This document shows positions 37,917 through 51,761 of a stretch of DNA of 64,000 nt, piece by piece. Each line of letters begins with the position of its first letter. Positions within the stretch are counted from its first letter, which is position 1. Below the pieces are notes generated by a model. The model saw nothing but the letters and a program-made list of their open reading frames with translations. It was not told where the DNA came from and did not search any database. The translations under genes were made by a program, and so were the position numbers. Source of the stretch: an uncultured Pseudoxanthomonas sp. Lineage in GTDB: Bacteria; Pseudomonadota; Gammaproteobacteria; Xanthomonadales; Xanthomonadaceae. Location of the stretch: contig CBFGZY010000007.1 of NCBI GenBank assembly GCA_965653375.1, positions 2,614-66,613 of the forward strand. The letters are read 5' to 3'.

Positions 37917-38001
37917 TGGCTTCGACCGCCACGCCGTGCGGTGGCCGCCTGACCGGCAAAAAGCCGCATAATCGGCCTAACTATCTGAGTGGCTTGCCTG
38001 C

Positions 38002-38175
38002 ATGAAACGCAATTTCGTCCTGGCCGTGGTGTTGATCGTTCTTGGCGCCTTGTTTTTGTTGAACAATCTTGGCATTACGAATATCAGTCTGGGCGAGCTG
38101 ATTTCAAAGTGGTGGCCGGCGCTCCTGATCCTGGTGGGCATCAGCATGCTGCTGCGGGGCAATACCGCGAAGTAG
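38002..38175 (+). CDS. Small 57-aa two-TM membrane protein (LiaI/LiaF-TM/DUF5668-like), below the ORF-track cutoff
   Basis: Manual translation MKRNFVLAVVLIVLGALFLLNNLGITNISLGELISKWWPALLILVGISMLLRGNTAK*; two hydrophobic helices and a WP.LLI.VG motif. Confidence 0.8.
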   Translation: MKRNFVLAVVLIVLGALFLLNNLGITNISLGELISKWWPALLILVGISMLLRGNTAK

Positions 38176-38206
38176 CGGCGCAATGGCCGATAGGAAGGCA
38201 TACCCG

Positions 38207-38968
38207 ATGTCCAACGCAGCACGTATCGATTTCAATTGCGACTTGGGCGAAGGCGTTGGCGACGATGCCGCCATCCTTCCCTTCATCAGTTCCGCCAGCA
38301 TTGCCTGCGGCTTCCATGCCGGATCCCCGCAAACCATGCAGGCGGCGGTGGCATTGTGCCTGGCGAACGGTGTCGCGATCGGCGCCCACCCTGCCTTCCA
38401 GGATCGCGAGAACTTCGGTCGAACCGCGCAGGATATTTCTGCCAACGACGCTTACGCGCTCACCTTGTATCAGGTGGCCGCATTGGATGGCTTTACGCGC
38501 GCTGCCGGTGCTCGTCTGCACCACGTCAAACCCCATGGCGCGTTCTACAACCAGGCGGCGCGCGACCGCGATCTGGCCGGGGCTATCGCCACGGCTGTAC
38601 GCGATCACGACCCCGGGTTGATCCTCTACGGCTTGGCTGGCAGCGCATTGACAGCCGCGGGCGAAGCGCTCGGCTTGCAGGTAGCGCATGAAGCGTTTGC
38701 CGAACGCCGCTACGAAGCCGACGGAACCTTGACGCCGCGTAGCCTTCCCGACGCCAGCATCGAAGATGTCGCCACGGCCGCAGCGCAAGTCCGGCAGATG
38801 TTGCAGCATGGCGCGGTCATCGCGCGCACCGGCGAACGCGTACCACTGCGCGCCGACAGCATCTGCCTGCATGGCGATCGGCCCGATGCACCTGTGTTTG
38901 CGCGCGGCCTGCGGGCTGCCATCGAATCCTCCGGCTTCACTATCCAAACCATGGAGCGCACCGAATGA
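38207..38968 (+). CDS. pxpA: 5-oxoprolinase subunit A (LamB/YcsF family)
   Basis: DFNCDLGEG, SASIACGFHAG, GAHP...DRE.FGR, HVKPHGA.YN, EAFAER.Y, ICLHGD. Confidence 0.96.
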   Translation: MSNAARIDFNCDLGEGVGDDAAILPFISSASIACGFHAGSPQTMQAAVALCLANGVAIGAHPAFQDRENFGRTAQDISANDAYALTLYQVAALDGFTRAAGARLHHVKPHGAFYNQAARDRDLAGAIATAVRDHDPGLILYGLAGSALTAAGEALGLQVAHEAFAERRYEADGTLTPRSLPDASIEDVATAAAQVRQMLQHGAVIARTGERVPLRADSICLHGDRPDAPVFARGLRAAIESSGFTIQTMERTE

Positions 38969-39699
38969 ACTATTGGCCCCTGCTTGGCATCGCGGTGGTG
39001 GTCGCAGGTTTTGTGCTTCGTTTCAATCCGGTGCTGGTGGTGGTGGCCGCCGGATTGGTCAGCGGATTGCTGGCCGGCATCTCGCTGCCGGACTTGCTGG
39101 CGCTGCTGGGCAACAGTTTCATCGACAATCGGCCATTGCTGATGTTTCTGCTCACCTTGCCGGCCATCGGATTGCTGGAGCACTACGGATTGCGCGAACG
39201 TGCCCGCGAATGGATCGTCAGTTTCAAGGGCCTGACCTTGTCGCGTTTCCAGATTGCCTATCTCGGTTTACGCCAGCTGATGAGCATGGCGGGCCTGACC
39301 CATGTGGCCGGCCCTGCGCAAACGGTACGCCCGCTGGTGGCGCCCATGAGCGAAGCCGCGGCCGAGCGCACTTTGGGCGAACTGACCGAACATGACCGCG
39401 AACGCGTGCGTGCCAGCGCAGCGGCCACCGACAACGTGGGCTTGTTCTTTGGCGAGGACGTTTTCGTCGCGATCGGCGCAGTGCTGCTGATCCAAGGCTT
39501 CTACGCGCGCAACGGTATCGAACTCGAACCGCTGGCGATCGCGCTGTGGGCATTGCCTACCGCAGTAGCTGCATTCGTCATCCATGCGATCCGGTTGAAG
39601 TTGCTGCAGCGGCGGCTGGAACGCGAACATTTGGAACGCGAGCACGCTGCAAACGACGTGCCGGCCGACACGGTGGAGAGCACGAATGCTCAAGACTGA
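38965..39699 (+). CDS. DUF969-family membrane protein (putative 5-oxoproline transporter subunit)
   Basis: G..LRFNP.LVV, LP.IGLLE..GLRE, AAATDNVGLFFGED; follows pxpA. Confidence 0.88.
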   Translation: MNYWPLLGIAVVVAGFVLRFNPVLVVVAAGLVSGLLAGISLPDLLALLGNSFIDNRPLLMFLLTLPAIGLLEHYGLRERAREWIVSFKGLTLSRFQIAYLGLRQLMSMAGLTHVAGPAQTVRPLVAPMSEAAAERTLGELTEHDRERVRASAAATDNVGLFFGEDVFVAIGAVLLIQGFYARNGIELEPLAIALWALPTAVAAFVIHAIRLKLLQRRLEREHLEREHAANDVPADTVESTNAQD

Positions 39700-40654
39700 G
39701 TACCTCTTCTGGCTGATCGGCGCCTTCTTGCTGATCACAGCTTTGTTCAACCTGCGCGAACGCCGTTATGCGGCCGGTATTTTCTGGCTGGTGCTGGTAG
39801 CACCGTTCGCCTTCGGCACACAGATCCAGGCAGCGGCCAAGGCCGGCGTGCAATGGCCGGCGCAGGCAATGGGCATGGGCGTGATGGCGCTTGGCATTCT
39901 GGCAACACGCGGTCGCTTCAGCGTCGTCGCAGACACCCCACAGGCACATGCACGCCGGCAGGCGCTTTCCGACGTCCTTCGCAACAAGCTGTTCGGCCCG
40001 GCACTGGTGATTCCCTTGCTGACATTGCTGTTGTTCATTGCCAGCAAGTTTCTGCCCGGCATGGACACGTTCATGGATCCCAAGGCACTGACCTTGAGCT
40101 CGCTGGCATTGGCCAGTCTGGTGGCGCTGGCTGCCGCATTGTGGGTGACGCGCGCTCGGCCGTTGGAATCGCTGGGCCAGGGCCGGCGGTTGCTGGATTC
40201 GCTGGGCTGGGCGGTGCTGCTGCCGATGGTGCTGGCCACACTGGGCGGCGTGTTCGCCGCGACCGGCGTGGGCGAAGCCATCGCCAGATTGGTGGGTTAC
40301 GTGATTCCCGTCGAAAACCGCATGGCTTGCCTGCTGGCGTTCTCGCTGGGCATGGTGTTGTTCACCATCATCATGGGCAATGCGTTTGCCGCATTCCCGG
40401 TGATGATGGCCGGTATCGGCCTGCCACTACTGATCCAGAAGCACGGCGCGGATCCGGCGGTATTGGGCGCCATTGGCATGTTGACCGGATACTGCGGCAC
40501 CTTGCTGACGCCGATGGCCGCCAACTTCAACATCGTGCCGGCGGTGCTGCTGGAATTGAAAGACCAGTACGGCGTGATCCGCATGCAGGCGGCCACTGCG
40601 TTCTGGCTGATGGGTGTCAATGTGCTGCTGATGGCTTGGCTGTGCTTTCGATGA
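39686..40654 (+). CDS. DUF979-family membrane protein (putative 5-oxoproline transporter subunit)
   Basis: [45 protein letters not shown]. Confidence 0.88.
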
Positions 40655-40691
40655 GACAAGCGCTTCTGATTCACAGGGCGAGATACTGCCT

Positions 40692-41345
40692 ATGAAAGCT
40701 CCTCCTACCGTATTGCTAACCGGCTTCGCGCCCTTCGGCGGTGAAACCACGAATCCCAGTTGGGAGGCTGTTGTTGCGCTGGACGGCCGCCGTATCCGGG
40801 GGCACCGCGTGGTCGCCCGCCAGTTGTCGGTAACTTTCGGCGAATCGTTGAAAGCTCTCCGCGCGGCGCTTCGGGAAACCTCGCCTTCATTGGTCATTTG
40901 CGTGGGCCAGGCCGGTGGGCGCACGCAGTTGTCGCTGGAGCGCGTCGCCATCAATGTCGATGACGCACGCATTGCAGACAATGCAGGCTATCAACCCATC
41001 GACACACCGATTGCCGAAAACGGGCCTGCAGCGTATTTCAGCACGCTGCCCATCAAGGCACTACTGGCTGGCTTGCGCGACGCCGGCTATCCCGTCGAGG
41101 TTTCGCAGACTGCGGGCACTTACGTGTGCAACCATGTTTTCTACGGCTTGATGCATGCGCTGCGCAACAAACGCGCCGTGCGCGGCGGCTTCATCCACAT
41201 TCCGTATTCGCCCGTGCAAGCGGCCGCCCATCCAGGCGCAGCCAGCTTGTCGACGGAAGTCGTGACCGAAGCGTTACGCTTGGCCATTCGTATTTCGCTG
41301 ACGACGGCCGTCGACAGCAAGCTCGCCGCAGGAGCGGAACATTGA
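40692..41345 (+). CDS. pcp: Pyroglutamyl-peptidase I
   Basis: [47 protein letters not shown]. Confidence 0.97.
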
Positions 41346-41534: not shown

Positions 41535-42101
41535 TCAGGTACGCGGCAGCGTCACGCCGACCTGGCCCTGATACTTGCCGCCGCGATCCTTGTAGCTGGT
41601 TTCGCAAATCTCGTCGGATTCGAAGAACAGCATCTGCGCCACGCCTTCGTTGGCGTATATGCGTGCCGGCAGCGGCGTGGTGTTGCTGAACTCCAGCGTC
41701 ACGTGACCTTCCCATTCCGGTTCCAACGGGGTGACGTTGACGATGATGCCGCAGCGCGCGTAGGTGCTCTTGCCCAGGCAGACCACCAGCGTGCTGCGGG
41801 GAATGCGGAAATATTCCACCGTCCGCGCCAAGGCAAAGCTGTTGGGCGGGATGATGCACACGTCCGACTCCACATCGACGAAGCTGCCGCTGTCGAAATG
41901 CTTGGGATCGACGATGGTCGAGTTGATGTTGGTAAAGACCTTGAACTCGCGCGAGCAGCGCACGTCATAGCCGTAGCTGGAGGTGCCGTAGCTGACGATG
42001 CGTTCGCCGTTGGCTTGCTTGACCTGGCCGGGCTCGTACGGCTCGATCATCTTGTGCTGCTCGGCCATGCGGCGGATCCAAAGGTCACTCTTGATGCTCA
42101 T
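41535..42101 (-). CDS. dcd: dCTP deaminase
   Basis: [41 protein letters not shown]. Confidence 0.98.
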
Positions 42102-42200
42102 GCGGCAGTTCCTGTTCCTGAAATGGGGAAAACGTGTGGCTGATTGACGTCTCGCCGCGCCGCGCAAGAAGCGCGGAGATGGGCGCGAAAGTCCGCAATT

Positions 42201-42225
42201 GTAGAGCGGAGCCCGCCCCGCTGCT
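42201..42225 (+). repeat. Degenerate single GTAG-REP
   Basis: GTAGAGCGGAGCCCGCCCCGCTGCT, same family as 28449 and 56042. Confidence 0.7.
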
Positions 42226-42259
42226 CCGGCTGGCGCGGCAGCGAAACACCGGAAAGCAT

Positions 42260-43306
42260 TCAGACCAGCGAGGAAGCGATAGGCATCGCGGCACGCGGCC
42301 GCATCGCCAGATGGGCCGCCATCATCCGGGCCGTATGGCGATAAGCCTGGGCAACGGCCGAATCCGGGGCCGCCACGACCACCGGCTGGCCGGCATCGCC
42401 ATGTTCGCGGATGGCGATGTCCAACGGCAGCGAACCCAGCAACGGCACCCCGTACTGCGCCGCCATCCGCTGGCCGCCACCTTCGCCGAACAGATGTTCG
42501 ACATGGCCGCAGTTGGAGCAGGTATGCACGGCCATGTTCTCCACGATACCCAGCACCGGAACTTCGACTTTCTCGAACATCTTCAGTGCCTTCCTGGCAT
42601 CAAGTGTCGCAATGTCTTGCGGCGTGGTGACGATGACCGCGCCTGCGACAGGTATCTTCTGCGCCAGGGTCAGCTGGATATCGCCCGTGCCCGGCGGCAG
42701 ATCGATCAGCAAGTAGTCCAGATCGCCCCATAGCGTATCGGTGAATAGTTGGGTCAACGCCGAAGTCGCCATCGGCCCGCGCCAGATCATCGGCGTGTCT
42801 TGATCCACCAAGAAGCCGATCGACATCGCTTCCACCCCGAAGGCTCGCATCGGCTCGATGGACTTGTTGTCCGGGCTGTCGGGTCGCCCGCTCAGCCCCA
42901 GCATGGTCGGCACGCTGGGTCCGTACACGTCCGCGTCCAGCACCCCGACTTTCGCGCCCTCGGCCTTCAGTGCCAGCGCCAGATTGACCGCGGTAGTCGA
43001 CTTCCCCACCCCGCCCTTGCCGGAGCCGATGGCGATGACGTTACGGACCCGGGGCAGTGGCGAGAGATTGGGCTGGACAGCATGGGATACGACGCGAAAA
43101 TCCAGCAGGAATTCCGCCAACTGGGTTCCCTCCGCGGCCAGCAGCGCTCCGACCTGGCGCTCGATGTCCTGCTTCAGCCCTAGAGCCGGGTAGCCCAGAG
43201 TCAGTCGGACCTGAGTGGCGGTCTTCGGCCCCTGCACTTGGAAATGGGCCTTCGTATCCCCCAACCGTACCCCCTCTGGGGCCTCTATTTGTGACAGCTG
43301 TTGCAC
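42260..43306 (-). CDS. apbC: Fe-S cluster carrier ATPase ApbC/Mrp (start uncertain)
   Basis: [38 protein letters not shown]...C..CG. Confidence 0.95.
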
Positions 43307-43503
43307 TAAATTGCCTTTGGATTGGATATTTTTGATAACTACGTCACATTTTCAAATGTAACAGTCGTAACATGGGTTGTGCTATGGGCGCAGTCGTTAA
43401 TGTCGTGTTAACGTCAGACCACAGGACATTTGACGTGCGGCAGGGACTGACGGACCAGTCCAACGGGGGCCGCATCACCTTCTAGTTTAGGGGATTCACA
43501 ACT
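43289..43503 (+). promoter_or_regulatory. Upstream regulatory cassette of TBDR-1 (copy 1 of a duplicated ~215-bp element)
   Basis: Aligns block-for-block with 46476-46691; includes the identical 24-mer TTTCAAATGTAACAGTCGTAACAT and GTTAA-N7-TTAAC. Confidence 0.85.
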
Positions 43504-46353
43504 ATGTCATTTCGGAATATGACTGCGCCCAAGCGTAGTCGATTGAGCGCGGCCATGTTTGCCGTATTGCTGCTGCCCGTCGCCGGGGTCACGCTGGCCC
43601 AAGAGGCTGACGACGCCACTCCGGATACCAGTAATCAAGCTTCCAAGCCGACTGCCACGCTGGACAAAGTCACCGTCACCGGCTCGCGCATCAAACGCGC
43701 CGAGATCGAAGGCCCTTCACCCGTAACCGTGATCACCTCGGAACAGATCGAGCGTGAAGGCTTCAATACCGTCTACGACGCGCTGAATACCTTGACTCAG
43801 GCGTCGGGCTCCACGCAGAACGAAGTCTTCCAAGGCGGATTCACCCCCAACGCCAGCGTCATCAACCTTCGCGGCTTGGGCCCGGGGCGTACGCTGCTGC
43901 TGATCAACGGCCGCCGTGCCGCCGACTATCCGTTGCCTTACAACGGCCAGAGCAACTTCGCTAATTTCGGCAACATTCCTGCCGCGGCGGTCGATCGGAT
44001 CGAACTGCTCGCAGGCGGCGCATCCGCAATCTATGGCTCGGACGCGGTGGCGGGCGTCGTCAACGTCATCCTGAAGACCAACTACGAAGGCGACTTGATC
44101 AAGTTGCGTGGCAGCACGACGAGCCAAGGTGGACGCGACCGCGGCGACTTGCAGTGGATCGGCGGCAAGACCGGCGACAAGTGGAGCGTGACCTACGCTT
44201 TCGAATACTTCGCCAGCGAACCGCTGTACGCCTATCAGCGCGACTTCATGGACTCCAGCCTGGACAATCCATTGCCGCCCGATTACGTGGGCATCCAACC
44301 GATCGGTACCATGCGCGTGCGCCGTCGCACCGGCTCCACTGCTGGTTCCTATTTCGCTCCGCCAGCCGGCGCCTGCGAGCAACTCGGCGACGAGTGGGTA
44401 CGCTGGAACTTCCGAAGTGCTAACACGGCTGGTGTCATCACCAACCTGGGCCAGGCCTGCGGCACGTTCAACGACGTGGGTTACCAAACCATCGACAACG
44501 GTAACAACGACCTGTCGGGCTACGCCTATGGCACCTTCGAATTCGACAACGGCATGCAGGGGTGGGCCAGCTTGCAAGCGTGGAAGTCGGAAGCAAAGTA
44601 CGGCGCAGGCACCCAGTTCTGGGGCGGCCGCACAACCGGCGCTTTGTGGTTCGACCAAGGCTTCAACAACCTGGTCGACGCACAGCGCGTCTTCACGCCA
44701 CAGGAAGCCGGCGGCGTCGAGAAGCTGCTTGCGAAAAACGACGAGCGATCTTTTGACCTGGCCGTCGGACTGCGTGGTCAGTTCGGCGAGCGTTTCGATT
44801 GGGACTTGACGCTGTCCCGCGCCGAGTACGACGTCGAGACCGATCGTCCTCGCCTGCTGTCCACAGCCGTCAACGACTACTTCCTGGGTCCGCAATTGGG
44901 CACCCGCGTCGTCGGTGGCGTGACGTACCCGGTATACAGGCTAAATCAGAGCCGGTACTACTCGGCACTGACTCCTGAGCAGTTCGCCTCGCTTAATACT
45001 GTCGTCAAAACGAAGGCCGAATCCTACGTAAACCAAGGCAGCTTTGTAGTGTCTGGCGATCTGTTCGAACTGCCGGCCGGCCCGTTGGGTTTCGCCGCAG
45101 TACTGGAAGCCTCTCAGCAAGAATACGACTTAACGGCCGATCCGCGGATCCTGCCCGACTATACGGGTACGGATCGCCCCTACAACCTCACCGGCACCGG
45201 TGGCGGTGGTCAACGCGATCGTTATGCCCTGGGTGTTGAGTTCTCGGTGCCGATCCTGGAATCGTTGAAAGGCAGCATCGCCGGCCGTTTTGACAAATAC
45301 GACGACGTAACCGCCGTGGACGATGCAAAAACCTGGAATGCCGGCCTGGAATGGCGTCCCGTAGACAACCTGCTGTTCCGCGGCTCCTATTCCACCAGCT
45401 TCCGCGCACCCGACATGCACTACGTGTTCGCTGAACGCAGCGGCTCTTTCAGTGCCATCCTCGATACTCGTCGCTGCCTGGAAAGCGGCAGAACCACCGC
45501 GCAATGTCCGTCGACCGACGTGGTCACCAACTACACTGCCTTCGGCGTTCGTCAAGGCACGACCGATCTGACCGAAGAAACCGGTAACTCGTGGACGGCC
45601 GGCATCGTGTGGGACATCATCGATGGCTTGTCGGTCAGCGCTGACTACTACGAAATCGAACTGGAAGATGCGGTTGCCGATATCACTACCGCATACATCC
45701 TGGATGCTGAAGCAGGTTGCGTTACCGGCCTAACGCGCACTCGTCAGCCTTTTACCTTAGGCGCACCGGGTTCGGCTTTCTGTAACGACATGATCTCGCG
45801 GGTTTCCCGCCTCAGCGCACCTGGCACTCCGAACGACGGCCAGATCACCGAAATCCGTCGTGGTCCCATCAACCGTGCTTACCAGAGTGTCTCGGGCATC
45901 GACGCCACGCTGGACTATCGCCTCGATACCGATCGCCTGGGTGATTTCCGCATCCAGGTTGGCTACTCGCACACACTCGAGCAGAAGACGTCGCAGTTCA
46001 AAGGCGATCCGATTCTCGACTATCGCGATGATCTGACCAACTTCGATTTCCGTAGCCGTATCCGTACAACGGCGACATGGACAAAGGACGACTGGCAAGC
46101 ATCGGTCTTTATGCTCCGATACGGCAGCCTACCGAACTGGCAGGAAACCGGCCGCATCGCTCCTTACTTCATCTGGAATACAAGCGTTGGCAAGCAGATA
46201 ACCGAAGATATGCAGGTCAACCTGTACGTCAATAACCTGTTCGACAAAACTCATCCGCGAGACGATGGGTTCAACAGCTATCCGTACTTCTGGCGGGCCT
46301 ACAGCCCGATCGGTCGTGAGATCGCTCTGGAACTCCAGTACAAGTTCAACTGA
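43504..46353 (+). CDS. TonB-dependent receptor 1
   Basis: Signal peptide; TonB box LDKVTVTGSRIKR; plug NLRGLG.GRTL.LINGRR and IELLAGGASAIYGSDAVAGVVNVI; C-terminal beta-strand LQYKFN. Confidence 0.96.
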   Translation: MSFRNMTAPKRSRLSAAMFAVLLLPVAGVTLAQEADDATPDTSNQASKPTATLDKVTVTGSRIKRAEIEGPSPVTVITSEQIEREGFNTVYDALNTLTQASGSTQNEVFQGGFTPNASVINLRGLGPGRTLLLINGRRAADYPLPYNGQSNFANFGNIPAAAVDRIELLAGGASAIYGSDAVAGVVNVILKTNYEGDLIKLRGSTTSQGGRDRGDLQWIGGKTGDKWSVTYAFEYFASEPLYAYQRDFMDSSLDNPLPPDYVGIQPIGTMRVRRRTGSTAGSYFAPPAGACEQLGDEWVRWNFRSANTAGVITNLGQACGTFNDVGYQTIDNGNNDLSGYAYGTFEFDNGMQGWASLQAWKSEAKYGAGTQFWGGRTTGALWFDQGFNNLVDAQRVFTPQEAGGVEKLLAKNDERSFDLAVGLRGQFGERFDWDLTLSRAEYDVETDRPRLLSTAVNDYFLGPQLGTRVVGGVTYPVYRLNQSRYYSALTPEQFASLNTVVKTKAESYVNQGSFVVSGDLFELPAGPLGFAAVLEASQQEYDLTADPRILPDYTGTDRPYNLTGTGGGGQRDRYALGVEFSVPILESLKGSIAGRFDKYDDVTAVDDAKTWNAGLEWRPVDNLLFRGSYSTSFRAPDMHYVFAERSGSFSAILDTRRCLESGRTTAQCPSTDVVTNYTAFGVRQGTTDLTEETGNSWTAGIVWDIIDGLSVSADYYEIELEDAVADITTAYILDAEAGCVTGLTRTRQPFTLGAPGSAFCNDMISRVSRLSAPGTPNDGQITEIRRGPINRAYQSVSGIDATLDYRLDTDRLGDFRIQVGYSHTLEQKTSQFKGDPILDYRDDLTNFDFRSRIRTTATWTKDDWQASVFMLRYGSLPNWQETGRIAPYFIWNTSVGKQITEDMQVNLYVNNLFDKTHPRDDGFNSYPYFWRAYSPIGREIALELQYKFN

Positions 46354-46377
46354 TCGTTGTCAGTGGAGTCACACCCA

Positions 46378-46403
46378 AAAAGCCCGGCGCAAGCCGGGCT
46401 TTT
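46378..46403 (+). terminator. Intrinsic terminator after TBDR-1 (bidirectional form)
   Basis: AAAAGCCCGGC-GCAA-GCCGGGCTTTT. Confidence 0.9.
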
Positions 46404-46475
46404 CGATTACAAGGGCGACAACGATCTGGCAACGACATCTGGCAATGCACGCAGAAAGCCTCGTGACGGCTTTTA

Positions 46476-46691
46476 TTGTGACGTAGACCTCACTAAACCG
46501 CGGTCATTTGGGCGATTTTTGAGACTTTCATCACAATTTCAAATGTAACAGTCGTAACATCACCTTGTGGTATGGGCGCGGTCGTTAATGTCATGTTAAC
46601 GTCGGTCCACAGGACATTTGACCGTGCGGTGGGACCAAAGGACGGGTCCTGGGGGCCGCATCACATCGGATCGTTTTAGGGGATTCACCAC
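46476..46691 (+). promoter_or_regulatory. Upstream regulatory cassette of TBDR-2 (copy 2)
   Basis: Paralogous to 43289-43503, with conserved spacing and covarying hairpins. Confidence 0.85.
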
Positions 46692-49487
<2,796 letters not shown>

Positions 49488-49507: not shown

Positions 49508-49535
49508 GACCCGGCGGAAACGCCGGGTCTTTTTT
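49508..49535 (+). terminator. Intrinsic terminator after TBDR-2
   Basis: GACCCGGCG-GAAA-CGCCGGGTC followed by TTTTTT. Confidence 0.92.
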
Positions 49536-49760: not shown

Positions 49761-51761
49761 ATGAAGCATTCGCTGCCAGCCACGTTCTTGGCCGTCGCCG
49801 GAGTATTCGCACTCTCAAGCGCCGGCGCTGCAACCTTGCAGCCTGTTTCGGACTTTGTAAGTCATCCTACCTACAGCGCCGTCAAGATATCGCCGACCGG
49901 CGAATACTTGGCAATGACGGTCGACCGTGGGGATCAGGATGTTCTCACCGTCCTTCGGACAAGCGACCTGAAGCTGATCAAAGTCAACCAGCTGCCTGAC
50001 AAGAAAAGCGTTGGTTCATTCTATTGGACAAGCCCCAATCGGTTGATGTTCAACGCCATCAAGAAAATCGGCGGTTTTGCCCAGCCGTTCGCCACAGGCG
50101 AGTGGTTCGCCGTGAATGCCGATGGCACACAGCCACGTCCGCTGATCTTCTACGGAACACGAGACGCCACCCAGCGCGGGAAGACCGTGGGTGCGGAACG
50201 CTTTACATTGTTGGACACTTTGCAGGACGACGATGAGAACGTCATCATGCAAGTCACTTCACCACGGTCCTCGGAGGGCGTAGGCACCGAAGTGGTCCGC
50301 ATGGATACGCTCAACGGCCGTCGTACATCGCTCGGGCGCGCGCCGAAGGAAAACTGCAGCATTGCGCTGGATGCCGCCAAGCAGCCTCGCTTCGCCGTGT
50401 GCTCTTCCAGCAAGGACGAGGAAGGCGAGTTCGATGAGCGAAGCGAACTCTATCGGCGAGACGACAAGGGCTGGACGCTGGTCAATGCATCCAAATCGGA
50501 CGGCAAACATCTTGATGTCGTCACCACCACCAGAAATGGCACCGTCTATGCCAGCCAAGACGACGGAAAGTCGCCGCCTGCCATCGGCACATTGGATACC
50601 GCAACCGGCGCGTTCACTGCCCTGTTCCAGGATCCAGTCGCCGAAGTGTCCAACTACATCTGGTCGACGGATGAAACCACGCTCATCGGCGTGGTGACCG
50701 AGGCCGGTGCGCCTGCCGTCAAGCTGATCGATGAAGCCCACCCTGATGCGGAGATCTACGCCTCGCTGGCCAGTGCCTTCGAGGGGCAGATGGTGGATTT
50801 CTCCAGCTATACGCAGGACGGCAAGCGAGTGGTTGTCAGCGTATACAGCGACAGCAATCCCGGCGAGTTGTATCTGTACGACAGGGAGACAGGCAAGGCG
50901 CGCTTCCTGATGAGCAACCGGCCGCAGCTGGACAAGAAGCGCATGGCTTCGGTCAAACCCTTCAACTTCACCGCACGCGACGGCAAGCGCGTGTATGGAT
51001 ACCTGACGATTCCCCAAGGATCCAGCGGCAAGAACCTGCCCATGATCGTCAATCCCCATGGCGGCCCCATCGGTCCTCGTGACGACTGGGCGTTCAACTG
51101 GGAAACCCAACTGCTGGCTAGCCGCGGATACGCGGTCCTGCAGGTGAACTACCGCGGTTCCGGCGGGTACGGCAAGGCATTCCGGGACGCCGGTCATGGC
51201 CAGTGGGGCCAGGGCATCCAGAACGACATCATCGATGCCACCCAGTGGGCCATCAAGAACGGTTACGCGGACGACGAACGAATCTGCATCTACGGCGGTA
51301 GTTTTGGAGGCTACTCTTCGTTGATGGCACCGATTCGTGCACCTGGCCTATTCAAGTGCACTTTCGGGTACGTCGGTGTCTATGACATCGACATGATGTT
51401 CAAGAAAGGGGACATCCCGGAAAACGAACCCGGCCAGCGCTTTCTGCGTCGTACCCATGGCACCGATACAAAGACATGGGCCGAAAACTCACCCGCTCGC
51501 CGCGCAGCCGAAGTCAAGATCCCGGTATACCTGGCGGCAGGCGCGCGCGACGTCCGTACCCCGCCGGAACAAACCGAGTTGATGAACAAAGCGCTGATCG
51601 CTGCGGGCAATTCTCCGGAAGGCATGCTCATTCAATCCGGTGAAATGCACGGCTTTTACGACGTTGCCAATCGCGTGAACCTTTACACGACGATGTTGGA
51701 CTTCTTCGCACGCCACATCGGGGGCGAAGTCACCGTGGGCAACCCCAGCAAGACCGAATAA
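49761..51761 (+). CDS. Secreted S9-family (prolyl oligopeptidase-like) peptidase
   Basis: Signal peptide; N-terminal propeller; PHGGP, NYRGSGGYG, nucleophile GGSFGG, D (RDVRT), H (EMHGF). Confidence 0.93.
   Translation: MKHSLPATFLAVAGVFALSSAGAATLQPVSDFVSHPTYSAVKISPTGEYLAMTVDRGDQDVLTVLRTSDLKLIKVNQLPDKKSVGSFYWTSPNRLMFNAIKKIGGFAQPFATGEWFAVNADGTQPRPLIFYGTRDATQRGKTVGAERFTLLDTLQDDDENVIMQVTSPRSSEGVGTEVVRMDTLNGRRTSLGRAPKENCSIALDAAKQPRFAVCSSSKDEEGEFDERSELYRRDDKGWTLVNASKSDGKHLDVVTTTRNGTVYASQDDGKSPPAIGTLDTATGAFTALFQDPVAEVSNYIWSTDETTLIGVVTEAGAPAVKLIDEAHPDAEIYASLASAFEGQMVDFSSYTQDGKRVVVSVYSDSNPGELYLYDRETGKARFLMSNRPQLDKKRMASVKPFNFTARDGKRVYGYLTIPQGSSGKNLPMIVNPHGGPIGPRDDWAFNWETQLLASRGYAVLQVNYRGSGGYGKAFRDAGHGQWGQGIQNDIIDATQWAIKNGYADDERICIYGGSFGGYSSLMAPIRAPGLFKCTFGYVGVYDIDMMFKKGDIPENEPGQRFLRRTHGTDTKTWAENSPARRAAEVKIPVYLAAGARDVRTPPEQTELMNKALIAAGNSPEGMLIQSGEMHGFYDVANRVNLYTTMLDFFARHIGGEVTVGNPSKTE

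Follow-up and report, generated by a model that had tools for sequence, protein, structure and literature searches.

A covarying hairpin with a GGA loop in the leaders of two tandem TonB-dependent receptor genes of an uncultured Pseudoxanthomonas, a candidate target of CsrA/RsmA

Introduction

The published high-affinity site for CsrA/RsmE is a hexaloop with the pattern ANGGAX that sits directly on a stem, and the hcnA loop that was solved together with RsmE reads ACGGAU (PMC4005645). A CsrA dimer bridges sites that lie 10-63 nucleotides (nt) apart (PMC10746276), and in Xanthomonas RsmA/CsrA binds GGA loops in the hrpG and virB 5' untranslated regions (UTRs) (PMC3937308, PMC7286519). In the Xanthomonadaceae, CsrA/RsmA regulons are known almost solely from the virulence genes of plant pathogens. 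Here we analyse a stretch of 64,000 nt from an uncultured Pseudoxanthomonas sp. (GenBank assembly GCA_965653375.1, contig CBFGZY010000007.1, positions 2,614 to 66,613 of the forward strand), hereafter the window, in which two tandem genes for TonB-dependent receptors, TBDR1 and TBDR2, each follow a short predicted leader with a hairpin that displays GGA in its loop. On balance, and with little more than even confidence, we read this leader as an uncatalogued leader for translational control of the CsrA/RsmA type, possibly shared with the small RNA (sRNA) sX13, on two receptor genes that would each be transcribed alone.

Results

A hairpin that covaries and displays GGA

The hairpin has two tiers and is found in both the minimum-free-energy and the centroid folds of the two window leaders. 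Its outer stem is GUGCGGC/GCCGCAU in copy 1 and GUGCGGU/GCCGCAU in copy 2, and its inner hairpin reads GGACUG-ACGGAC-CAGUCC (43444-43461) in the former and GGGACC-AAAGGACG-GGUCCU (46631-46650) in the latter. An earlier note on this DNA had already claimed an outer stem kept in both leaders, an inner hairpin that changes its sequence while keeping its pairing, ANGGA in both loops and the same Shine-Dalgarno (SD) sequence in both copies; all of these elements were recovered at the positions given, and related leaders were collected to see whether the pairings exceed chance.

These relatives were sought in two ways. BLASTN found the leader in 18 of 78 Pseudoxanthomonas species genomes and in no genome among the 195 from other genera (201-genome family sample). 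A covariance model built from 19 leaders raised the first count to 31 of the 78, with a tandem pair about 3.1 kb apart in eight of these 31, as in the window, and gave weak matches in three other genera. Aligned to this model, 45 leaders of Pseudoxanthomonas and some sister genera provide the sample for the counts that follow, unless another is named. They make up a candidate new family of the Rfam type, with 45 sequences from at least four genera. A metagenome scan with the 14-mer TTTAGGGGATTCAC, a pattern too short for the purpose, returned 120 stretches, only two of which were true leaders (L107 and L133).

The covariation of the hairpin is clear. Its seven outer and six inner pairs hold standard pairs in 89.6% of the alignment cells, a share that drops to 25-57% once the 3' partner is slid out of register by 1-3 columns, and changes on both sides occur in every one of the 13 pairs. 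Compensatory cells number 78, compared with 19.5 +/- 5.1 in shuffled alignments, none of 500 shuffles reaching the observed value, and the covariation score is 0.417 in register and at most 0.107 when slid. Because the alignment of the 45 leaders was fitted to the model, we repeated the count on a sequence-only MAFFT alignment of 19 leaders, which reproduced the result (85.4% paired versus at most 52% slid; 10 compensatory cells versus 4.3 +/- 1.7). G-U pairs are frequent, with 30 at the first pair alone, which fits a structure in the RNA of the sense strand. Both the covarying hairpin and its display of GGA are real features of these leaders.

Whereas the stems turn over, four positions of the loop (A, G, G and A) are nearly invariant. 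It is a hexaloop in 33 of the 45 leaders, with the logo A-N-G-G-A-X (A31; N as A13/G11/C6/U3; G32; G32; A30; X as U14/C10/A7/G2), and its variable positions coincide exactly with positions N and X in the consensus published for the site. GGA sits in the hairpin loop in 40 leaders. In two genus-mates (L221 188-329 and L222 193-332) a variant leader retains the promoter, the outer stem and the SD, while its inner loops, AAACCAA and AGACCAA, lack GGA and a GGGGGAC run stands near the 5' end instead.

Two further GGA sites accompany the loop. In 44 of the 45 leaders the first, an A-GGA, falls between +3 and +10 relative to the predicted 5' end. The third, counting the loop as second, is the GGA within the SD block UUUAGGGGAUUCAC, where AGGGGAU is retained in 40 leaders and GGGGA in 42. 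From the first GGA to that of the loop the distance is 28 nt, and a further 40 nt (copy 1) or 41 nt (copy 2) separate the latter from the GGA of the SD; since they fall within the range of 10-63 nt, these spacings could be bridged. Each 83-nt leader holds three A(N)GGA motifs and four to five GGA, a density that only 1.8% and 3.4% of random windows of the genome reach. The centroid folds leave the SD region without predicted pairing, and the total folding energy of the leaders is unexceptional (z = -1.18 and +0.52). Coordinates are collected in Table 1.

Table 1. Positions, in window coordinates, of the leader elements, promoters and genes discussed in the text
Feature	Position	Strand	Description
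Predicted 5' leader of TBDR1 mRNA	43421-43503	+	83 nt; begins ACAGGACA (43421-43428)
Predicted 5' leader of TBDR2 mRNA	46609-46691	+	83 nt; ACAGGACA at 46609-46616
GGA site 1, copy 1	43424-43426	+	A-GGA, near leader 5' end
GGA site 1, copy 2	46612-46614	+	
Two-tier hairpin, copy 1	43435-43475	+	outer stem 43435-43441/43469-43475; inner stem 43444-43449/43456-43461; hexaloop ACGGAC 43450-43455; G-rich 3' internal loop 43462-43468
Two-tier hairpin, copy 2	46624-46661	+	outer stem 46624-46630/46655-46661; inner stem 46631-46636/46645-46650; 8-nt loop AAAGGACG 46637-46644, GGA 46640-46642
SD block, copy 1	43486-43499	+	TTTAGGGGATTCAC; GGA site 3 at 43492-43494
SD block, copy 2	46675-46688	+	TTTAGGGGATTCAC; GGA at 46681-46683
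CRP/Clp-like box, copy 1	43333-43348	+	TGATAACTACGTCACA; TGTGA-N6-TCACA type; centre about -80.5 from predicted transcription start
CRP/Clp-like box, copy 2	46520-46535	+	TGAGACTTTCATCACA
Direct repeats	43358-43373; 46545-46560		GTAAC-N4-GTAACAT
Predicted sigma-70 promoter, TBDR1	43385-43414	+	-35-like TGGGCG 43385-43390; 18-nt spacer with GTTAA box; extended -10 TGTTAACGT 43406-43414
Predicted promoter, TBDR2	46573-46602	+	TGGGCG 46573-46578; 18-nt spacer; extended -10 TGTTAACGT 46594-46602
Second GTTAA box, promoter spacer	43396-43414		cGTTAAnnnCATGTTAAcG
TBDR1	43504-46353	+	TonB-dependent receptor, 949 aa; Pfam Plug + TonB_dep_Rec barrel
TBDR2	46692-49487	+	TonB-dependent receptor, 931 aa; Pfam Plug + barrel
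Intrinsic terminator after TBDR1	46381-46403	+	AGCCCGG-CGCAAG-CCGGGCT + TTTT; sequence reading; weak Rfam terminator-like matches here
Intrinsic terminator after TBDR2	49508-49535		
apbC	42260-43306	-	flanks the receptor pair 5'
S9 prolyl-oligopeptidase-family protein gene	49761-51761		flanks the receptor pair 3'
Peptide-processing neighbours	38000-41345; 49761-51761		pyroglutamyl peptidase 40692-41345; DUF979 39686-40654; S9 protein 49761-51761

The promoter and the helices that were set aside

Upstream of the hairpin, conservation follows the lines of a promoter. In the 45 leaders and in TBDR homologues of other genera, the letters T-G-n-T-A-n-n-n-T of the -10 box are invariant, and three inner positions of the hexamer are free to vary (TAACGT, TAAGTT, TAATGT, TAGTTT, TACGGT, TAATTT). 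ATGACA or GTGACA stands 18 nt upstream of the box across the same set, and the whole block of (A/G)TGACA, 18 nt and TGTTAAgGT is common to TBDR homologues of Lysobacter, Luteimonas, Stenotrophomonas, Arenimonas, Vulcaniibacterium and further Lysobacterales. The T-G-n-T-A-n-n-n-T positions are those that define the extended -10 element. Because the invariant letters are exactly these and the inner ones vary, we read the box as part of a promoter and not as the arm of an RNA helix. Given the position of the extended -10 with TGGGCG 18 nt upstream, transcription would start near 43421 in copy 1 and 46609 in copy 2, 7 nt after the -10; a purine occupies the predicted +1 in 39 of the 45 leaders. 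The CRP/Clp-like box, of the form TGTGA-N6-TCACA, keeps its distance in orthologues and in distant leaders of the genus alike and may serve class I activation, perhaps by Clp.

Other readings of this region were considered and dropped. An alternative promoter farther upstream, composed of a class II CRP box and a TAACAT -10, would fall in the block with the direct repeat GTAAC-N4-GTAACAT. We favour the downstream promoter because this repeat was not found in distant leaders, which retain TGTTAnnnT and its -35 at 18 nt. For sigma-54 and extracytoplasmic-function (ECF) sigma factors, the spacings of the conserved boxes are unsuitable. The repeat itself lies between the CRP-like box and the promoter, is kept in the main Pseudoxanthomonas clade and may be a site for a transcription factor. 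The second GTTAA box in the promoter spacer forms in the main clade an inverted repeat, CGTTAA-N7-TTAACG; at least six genera keep this box ahead of TBDR homologues (loci L027-L053), and it may be an operator overlapping the -10.

The promoter bears directly on one claim of the earlier note that did not stand, namely an RNA stem upstream of the hairpin (ACGTCA/TGACGT in copy 1). In copy 1 the pairing is a perfect one of 6 bp, and copy 2 pairs CGGTC/GACCG in another register; most orthologues, too, depart from the register of copy 1. In fixed register the pairing does not exceed that of shuffled alignments (69.8% versus 68.2% paired, score 0.158 versus 0.151, in a count that included two other candidate helices). 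Changes in the -10 hexamer and in the arm that follows the first GGA had looked compensatory, but a comparison of each sequence's own arm with foreign arms was negative (-7.0 versus -6.6 kcal/mol). As it lies inside the extended -10, the 5' arm of the supposed stem is probably not transcribed. An anti-SD helix AAUCCC/GGGAUU, a P0 helix AUGGG/CCCAU and a start-codon hairpin UUGACA/UGUCAG likewise did not differ from shuffles. A pseudoknot of the loop GGAU with a downstream AUCC was rejected by eye, leaders with a GGAC loop having AUCAC instead.

CsrA/RsmA as the probable regulator of the leader

A hairpin loop with GGA, a second site at the SD, a spacing between them that a dimer could bridge and a CsrA encoded in the same genome are all present here. 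The genome holds a single csrA gene, whose product, a canonical CsrA of 68 aa, matches PF02599 with 92 bits and is, over its first ~50 residues, presumably nearly identical to CsrA of E. coli. The earlier note had recognised the CsrA/RsmA target pattern; the logo of the loop, the conserved GGA sites and the csrA gene agree with it, and the upstream stem that it had included falls away. Its label of a new kind of cis-regulatory RNA does not fit, as a CsrA target would join a kind already known.

We infer the transcription start, the binding of CsrA and the sign of the regulation from the sequence, and the following mechanism seems the most likely. Each receptor gene would form a monocistronic unit made of the CRP/Clp-like box, the extended -10 sigma-70 promoter, a leader of about 83 nt, the open reading frame and the terminator. 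A CsrA dimer would dock on the A-N-G-G-A-X hexaloop, placed directly on the stem of the covarying hairpin, as its anchor. Held there, it would reach the GGA in the SD AGGGGAU 40 nt downstream and exclude the 30S subunit. High free CsrA would then entail less synthesis of the receptor, repression being the expected sign because sites that overlap the SD usually act so. The 5' A-GGA, 28 nt upstream of the loop, could be a second bridging partner or a docking site for a second dimer; flhDC and hrpG suggest by analogy that it may instead, or in addition, protect the 5' end.

Several observations weigh against this reading. The SD site is GGGGA and no strict A(N)GGA, and the loop lacks GGA in five of the 45 leaders. 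Copy 2 has an 8-nt loop, for which a lower affinity for CsrA is predicted; loops of this type were bound about tenfold more weakly in the RsmE study (PMC4005645). GGA motifs are also insufficient alone, since the hrpC and hrpE leaders, which contain GGA, are not bound by RsmA (PMC3937308). The invariance of AGGGGAUUCAC can be explained equally well by pairing with sX13. Finally, hairpins with a GGA loop are not enriched in the TBDR leaders of other genera (4 of 15, against 3.1 in shuffles), which makes the element a clade-specific acquisition and not a family-wide rule. As a separate observation, seven of these 15 leaders (L027, L032, L034, L037, L040, L049, L052), otherwise unrelated to ours, carry a GGA no more than about 12 nt from the predicted transcription start.

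sX13 as a possible rival or partner

The alternative that survives best, although we hold it to be improbable, is that the leader chiefly serves as a target for sX13. This sRNA has C-rich loops (CAUCCCCU, CCUCCCCA and CCCCCCCU) that would pair with two 4G/5G motifs of the leader, one being the SD AGGGGAU and the other the G-run on the 3' side of the inner stem, and so block the ribosome. The hairpin would then serve to position the upstream G-run, and the GGA loop would be incidental or meant for a second regulator. sX13 occurs in Pseudoxanthomonas (Schmidtke et al., PMC3771888), and a homologue lies downstream of polA in the genome studied here (contig C9, L223 1190-1307, minus strand; RF02232, 87.9 bits against a gathering score of 50). 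Its loop 1, CAUCCCCU, includes an exact 7-nt complement of the SD AGGGGAU. In copy 2, CCUGGGG (46648-46654) complements a CCCCAGG that spans the junction of loop 2 and the 3' stem of sX13, with only CCCCA inside the loop. sX13 represses mRNAs that carry 4G motifs near the start codon, and two such motifs are frequent in its targets (PMC3771888). In addition, the SD block is invariant far beyond the needs of an SD in 40 of the 45 leaders.

The presence of the sRNA and of a complementary 4G motif is nonetheless weak evidence, because the motif is common: about 31% of the genes of Xanthomonas campestris pv. vesicatoria have one near the start codon, and it is not sufficient for regulation (PMC3771888). 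Duplex energies between sX13 and the leaders are uninformative, as G-rich against C-rich sequences form strong duplexes even after shuffling. The upstream G-run is retained in only 22 leaders, compared with 40 for the GGA-bearing loop, and pairing with sX13 leaves unexplained both the covarying stem with its conserved GGA loop and the 5' GGA. CsrA and sX13 may well act together on the leader.

Sensing elements and structural hairpins

A fainter possibility is a sensing role for the hairpin, as a small element of an undescribed class that responds to a ligand or a protein, such as a riboswitch-like aptamer or the site of a dedicated RNA-binding protein, its GGA loop and G-rich internal loop being recognised without CsrA. 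We would give equally little credence to its more specific form, in which the hairpin is the receptor of an undescribed factor, either a small ligand tied to peptide uptake or a dedicated RNA-binding protein, that couples synthesis of the receptor to its substrate. Were this so, the leaders would represent a new and very small class of cis-regulatory RNA specific to the TonB-dependent peptide receptors of Xanthomonads. In keeping with it are the conserved unpaired nucleotides of the internal loop and hexaloop on a covarying scaffold, and the link of the element to one transporter family, as is often the case for riboswitches. A scan of both leaders against Rfam 15 with cmscan gave no match even at E <= 10; a scan of 42000-48000 returned only terminator-like noise, at 46350-46408. 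The earlier note had seen no likeness to the cobalamin and thiamine pyrophosphate (TPP) riboswitches and had offered a ligand-sensing leader as its alternative, a reading that the analysis does not support. The element has but one bipartite hairpin, some 40 nt long and of ordinary folding energy, its variable loop positions are just those of the CsrA consensus, and neither an alternative pairing nor a helix at the SD or the start codon proved to be conserved. No terminator was found after the hairpin either, and its absence, together with that of a conserved helix sequestering the SD, makes a riboswitch unlikely.

We give as little weight to the hairpin being a generic 5' element for stabilisation or folding, which without any trans-acting partner would protect from RNase E or keep the SD unstructured and would owe its conserved GGA to loop stability or descent: it does lie 14 nt from the predicted 5' end, and the centroid folds do leave the SD region open, but a purely structural hairpin should not hold the A, G, G and A positions of its loop nearly invariant over stems that turn over, nor does it explain the conserved 5' GGA.

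The receptor locus

The two receptor proteins share 52% identity, whereas the ~190 nt ahead of each gene are 85% identical. The homology between the upstream regions (43289-43503 compared with 46480-46691) reaches about 90 nt farther upstream than the leaders delimited in the earlier note and takes in the promoter and the CRP-like box. In other genomes with a tandem pair the second leader is far more diverged, with 48-81 bits as opposed to 83-121 bits for the first. The excess of upstream over protein identity and the divergence of the second leader elsewhere suggest that the regulatory region underwent gene conversion in this lineage.

Because each gene closes with its own intrinsic terminator, TBDR1 and TBDR2 are read as separate transcription units. 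No further copy of the upstream region exists elsewhere in the 4.3-Mb genome; a regulon search of this genome found AGGGGATTCA only at TBDR1 and TBDR2, and these two were also its only receptor genes preceded by a TTAA-N5-TGTTA promoter. Judged from the neighbouring peptidase genes (Table 1), the locus possibly fits the scavenging of peptides.

Discussion

If CsrA does control these leaders, they would be a covariation-supported example of this type on receptors for nutrient uptake in environmental Pseudoxanthomonas, one that has persisted since an old gene duplication. Scavenging at the outer membrane, possibly of peptides, would thereby be tied to the global switch between carbon use and stationary phase. 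The leader would also offer a short model RNA, with three sites in 83 nt, for bridging by CsrA and possibly for the interplay of CsrA and sX13 on one SD.

The leader can be compared to several known systems. Cobalamin riboswitches at btuB and TPP riboswitches in the Xanthomonadales share with it a structured 5' leader before a TonB-dependent receptor gene; unlike them, it has no Rfam match and consists of a single small hairpin in which no expression platform was found. With the target mRNAs of sX13 in Xanthomonas, whose 4G motifs are sites of translational enhancement or repression, it shares two G-runs near the start codon and an sX13 encoded in the genome, and loop 1 of the sRNA offers an exact 7-nt complement to its SD. 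Known sX13 targets have not, however, been described with a conserved hairpin or GGA loops, and in the TBDR leader the upstream G-run is only half conserved.

The leader also resembles 5' leaders repressed by CsrA/RsmA/RsmE such as those of hcnA (Pseudomonas protegens) and glgC (E. coli), which combine an A-N-G-G-A-X hexaloop on a stem with a further GGA in the SD at a bridgeable spacing. The loop of hcnA, ACGGAU, is that of several orthologues of our leader and differs from copy 1 (ACGGAC) only at the variable last position. The high-affinity hairpin of hcnA contains the ribosome-binding site (RBS), whereas the hairpin of the TBDR leader lies 40 nt upstream of an SD GGGGA that is predicted to be single-stranded, and the pair that closes the loop is G-C here and C-G in systems of the hcnA/glgC type. 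The 5' UTRs of hrpG, which is stabilised, and virB7, which is repressed, belong to the same family in Xanthomonas and carry GGA in predicted loops, including one at the RBS; the 5'-proximal site of the TBDR leader could stabilise as in hrpG. At 189 and ~240 nt these two leaders are longer, no structure supported by covariation has been reported for them, and they control secretion systems, while the TBDR leader is short, is kept in 31 of 78 Pseudoxanthomonas species and precedes an outer-membrane transporter.

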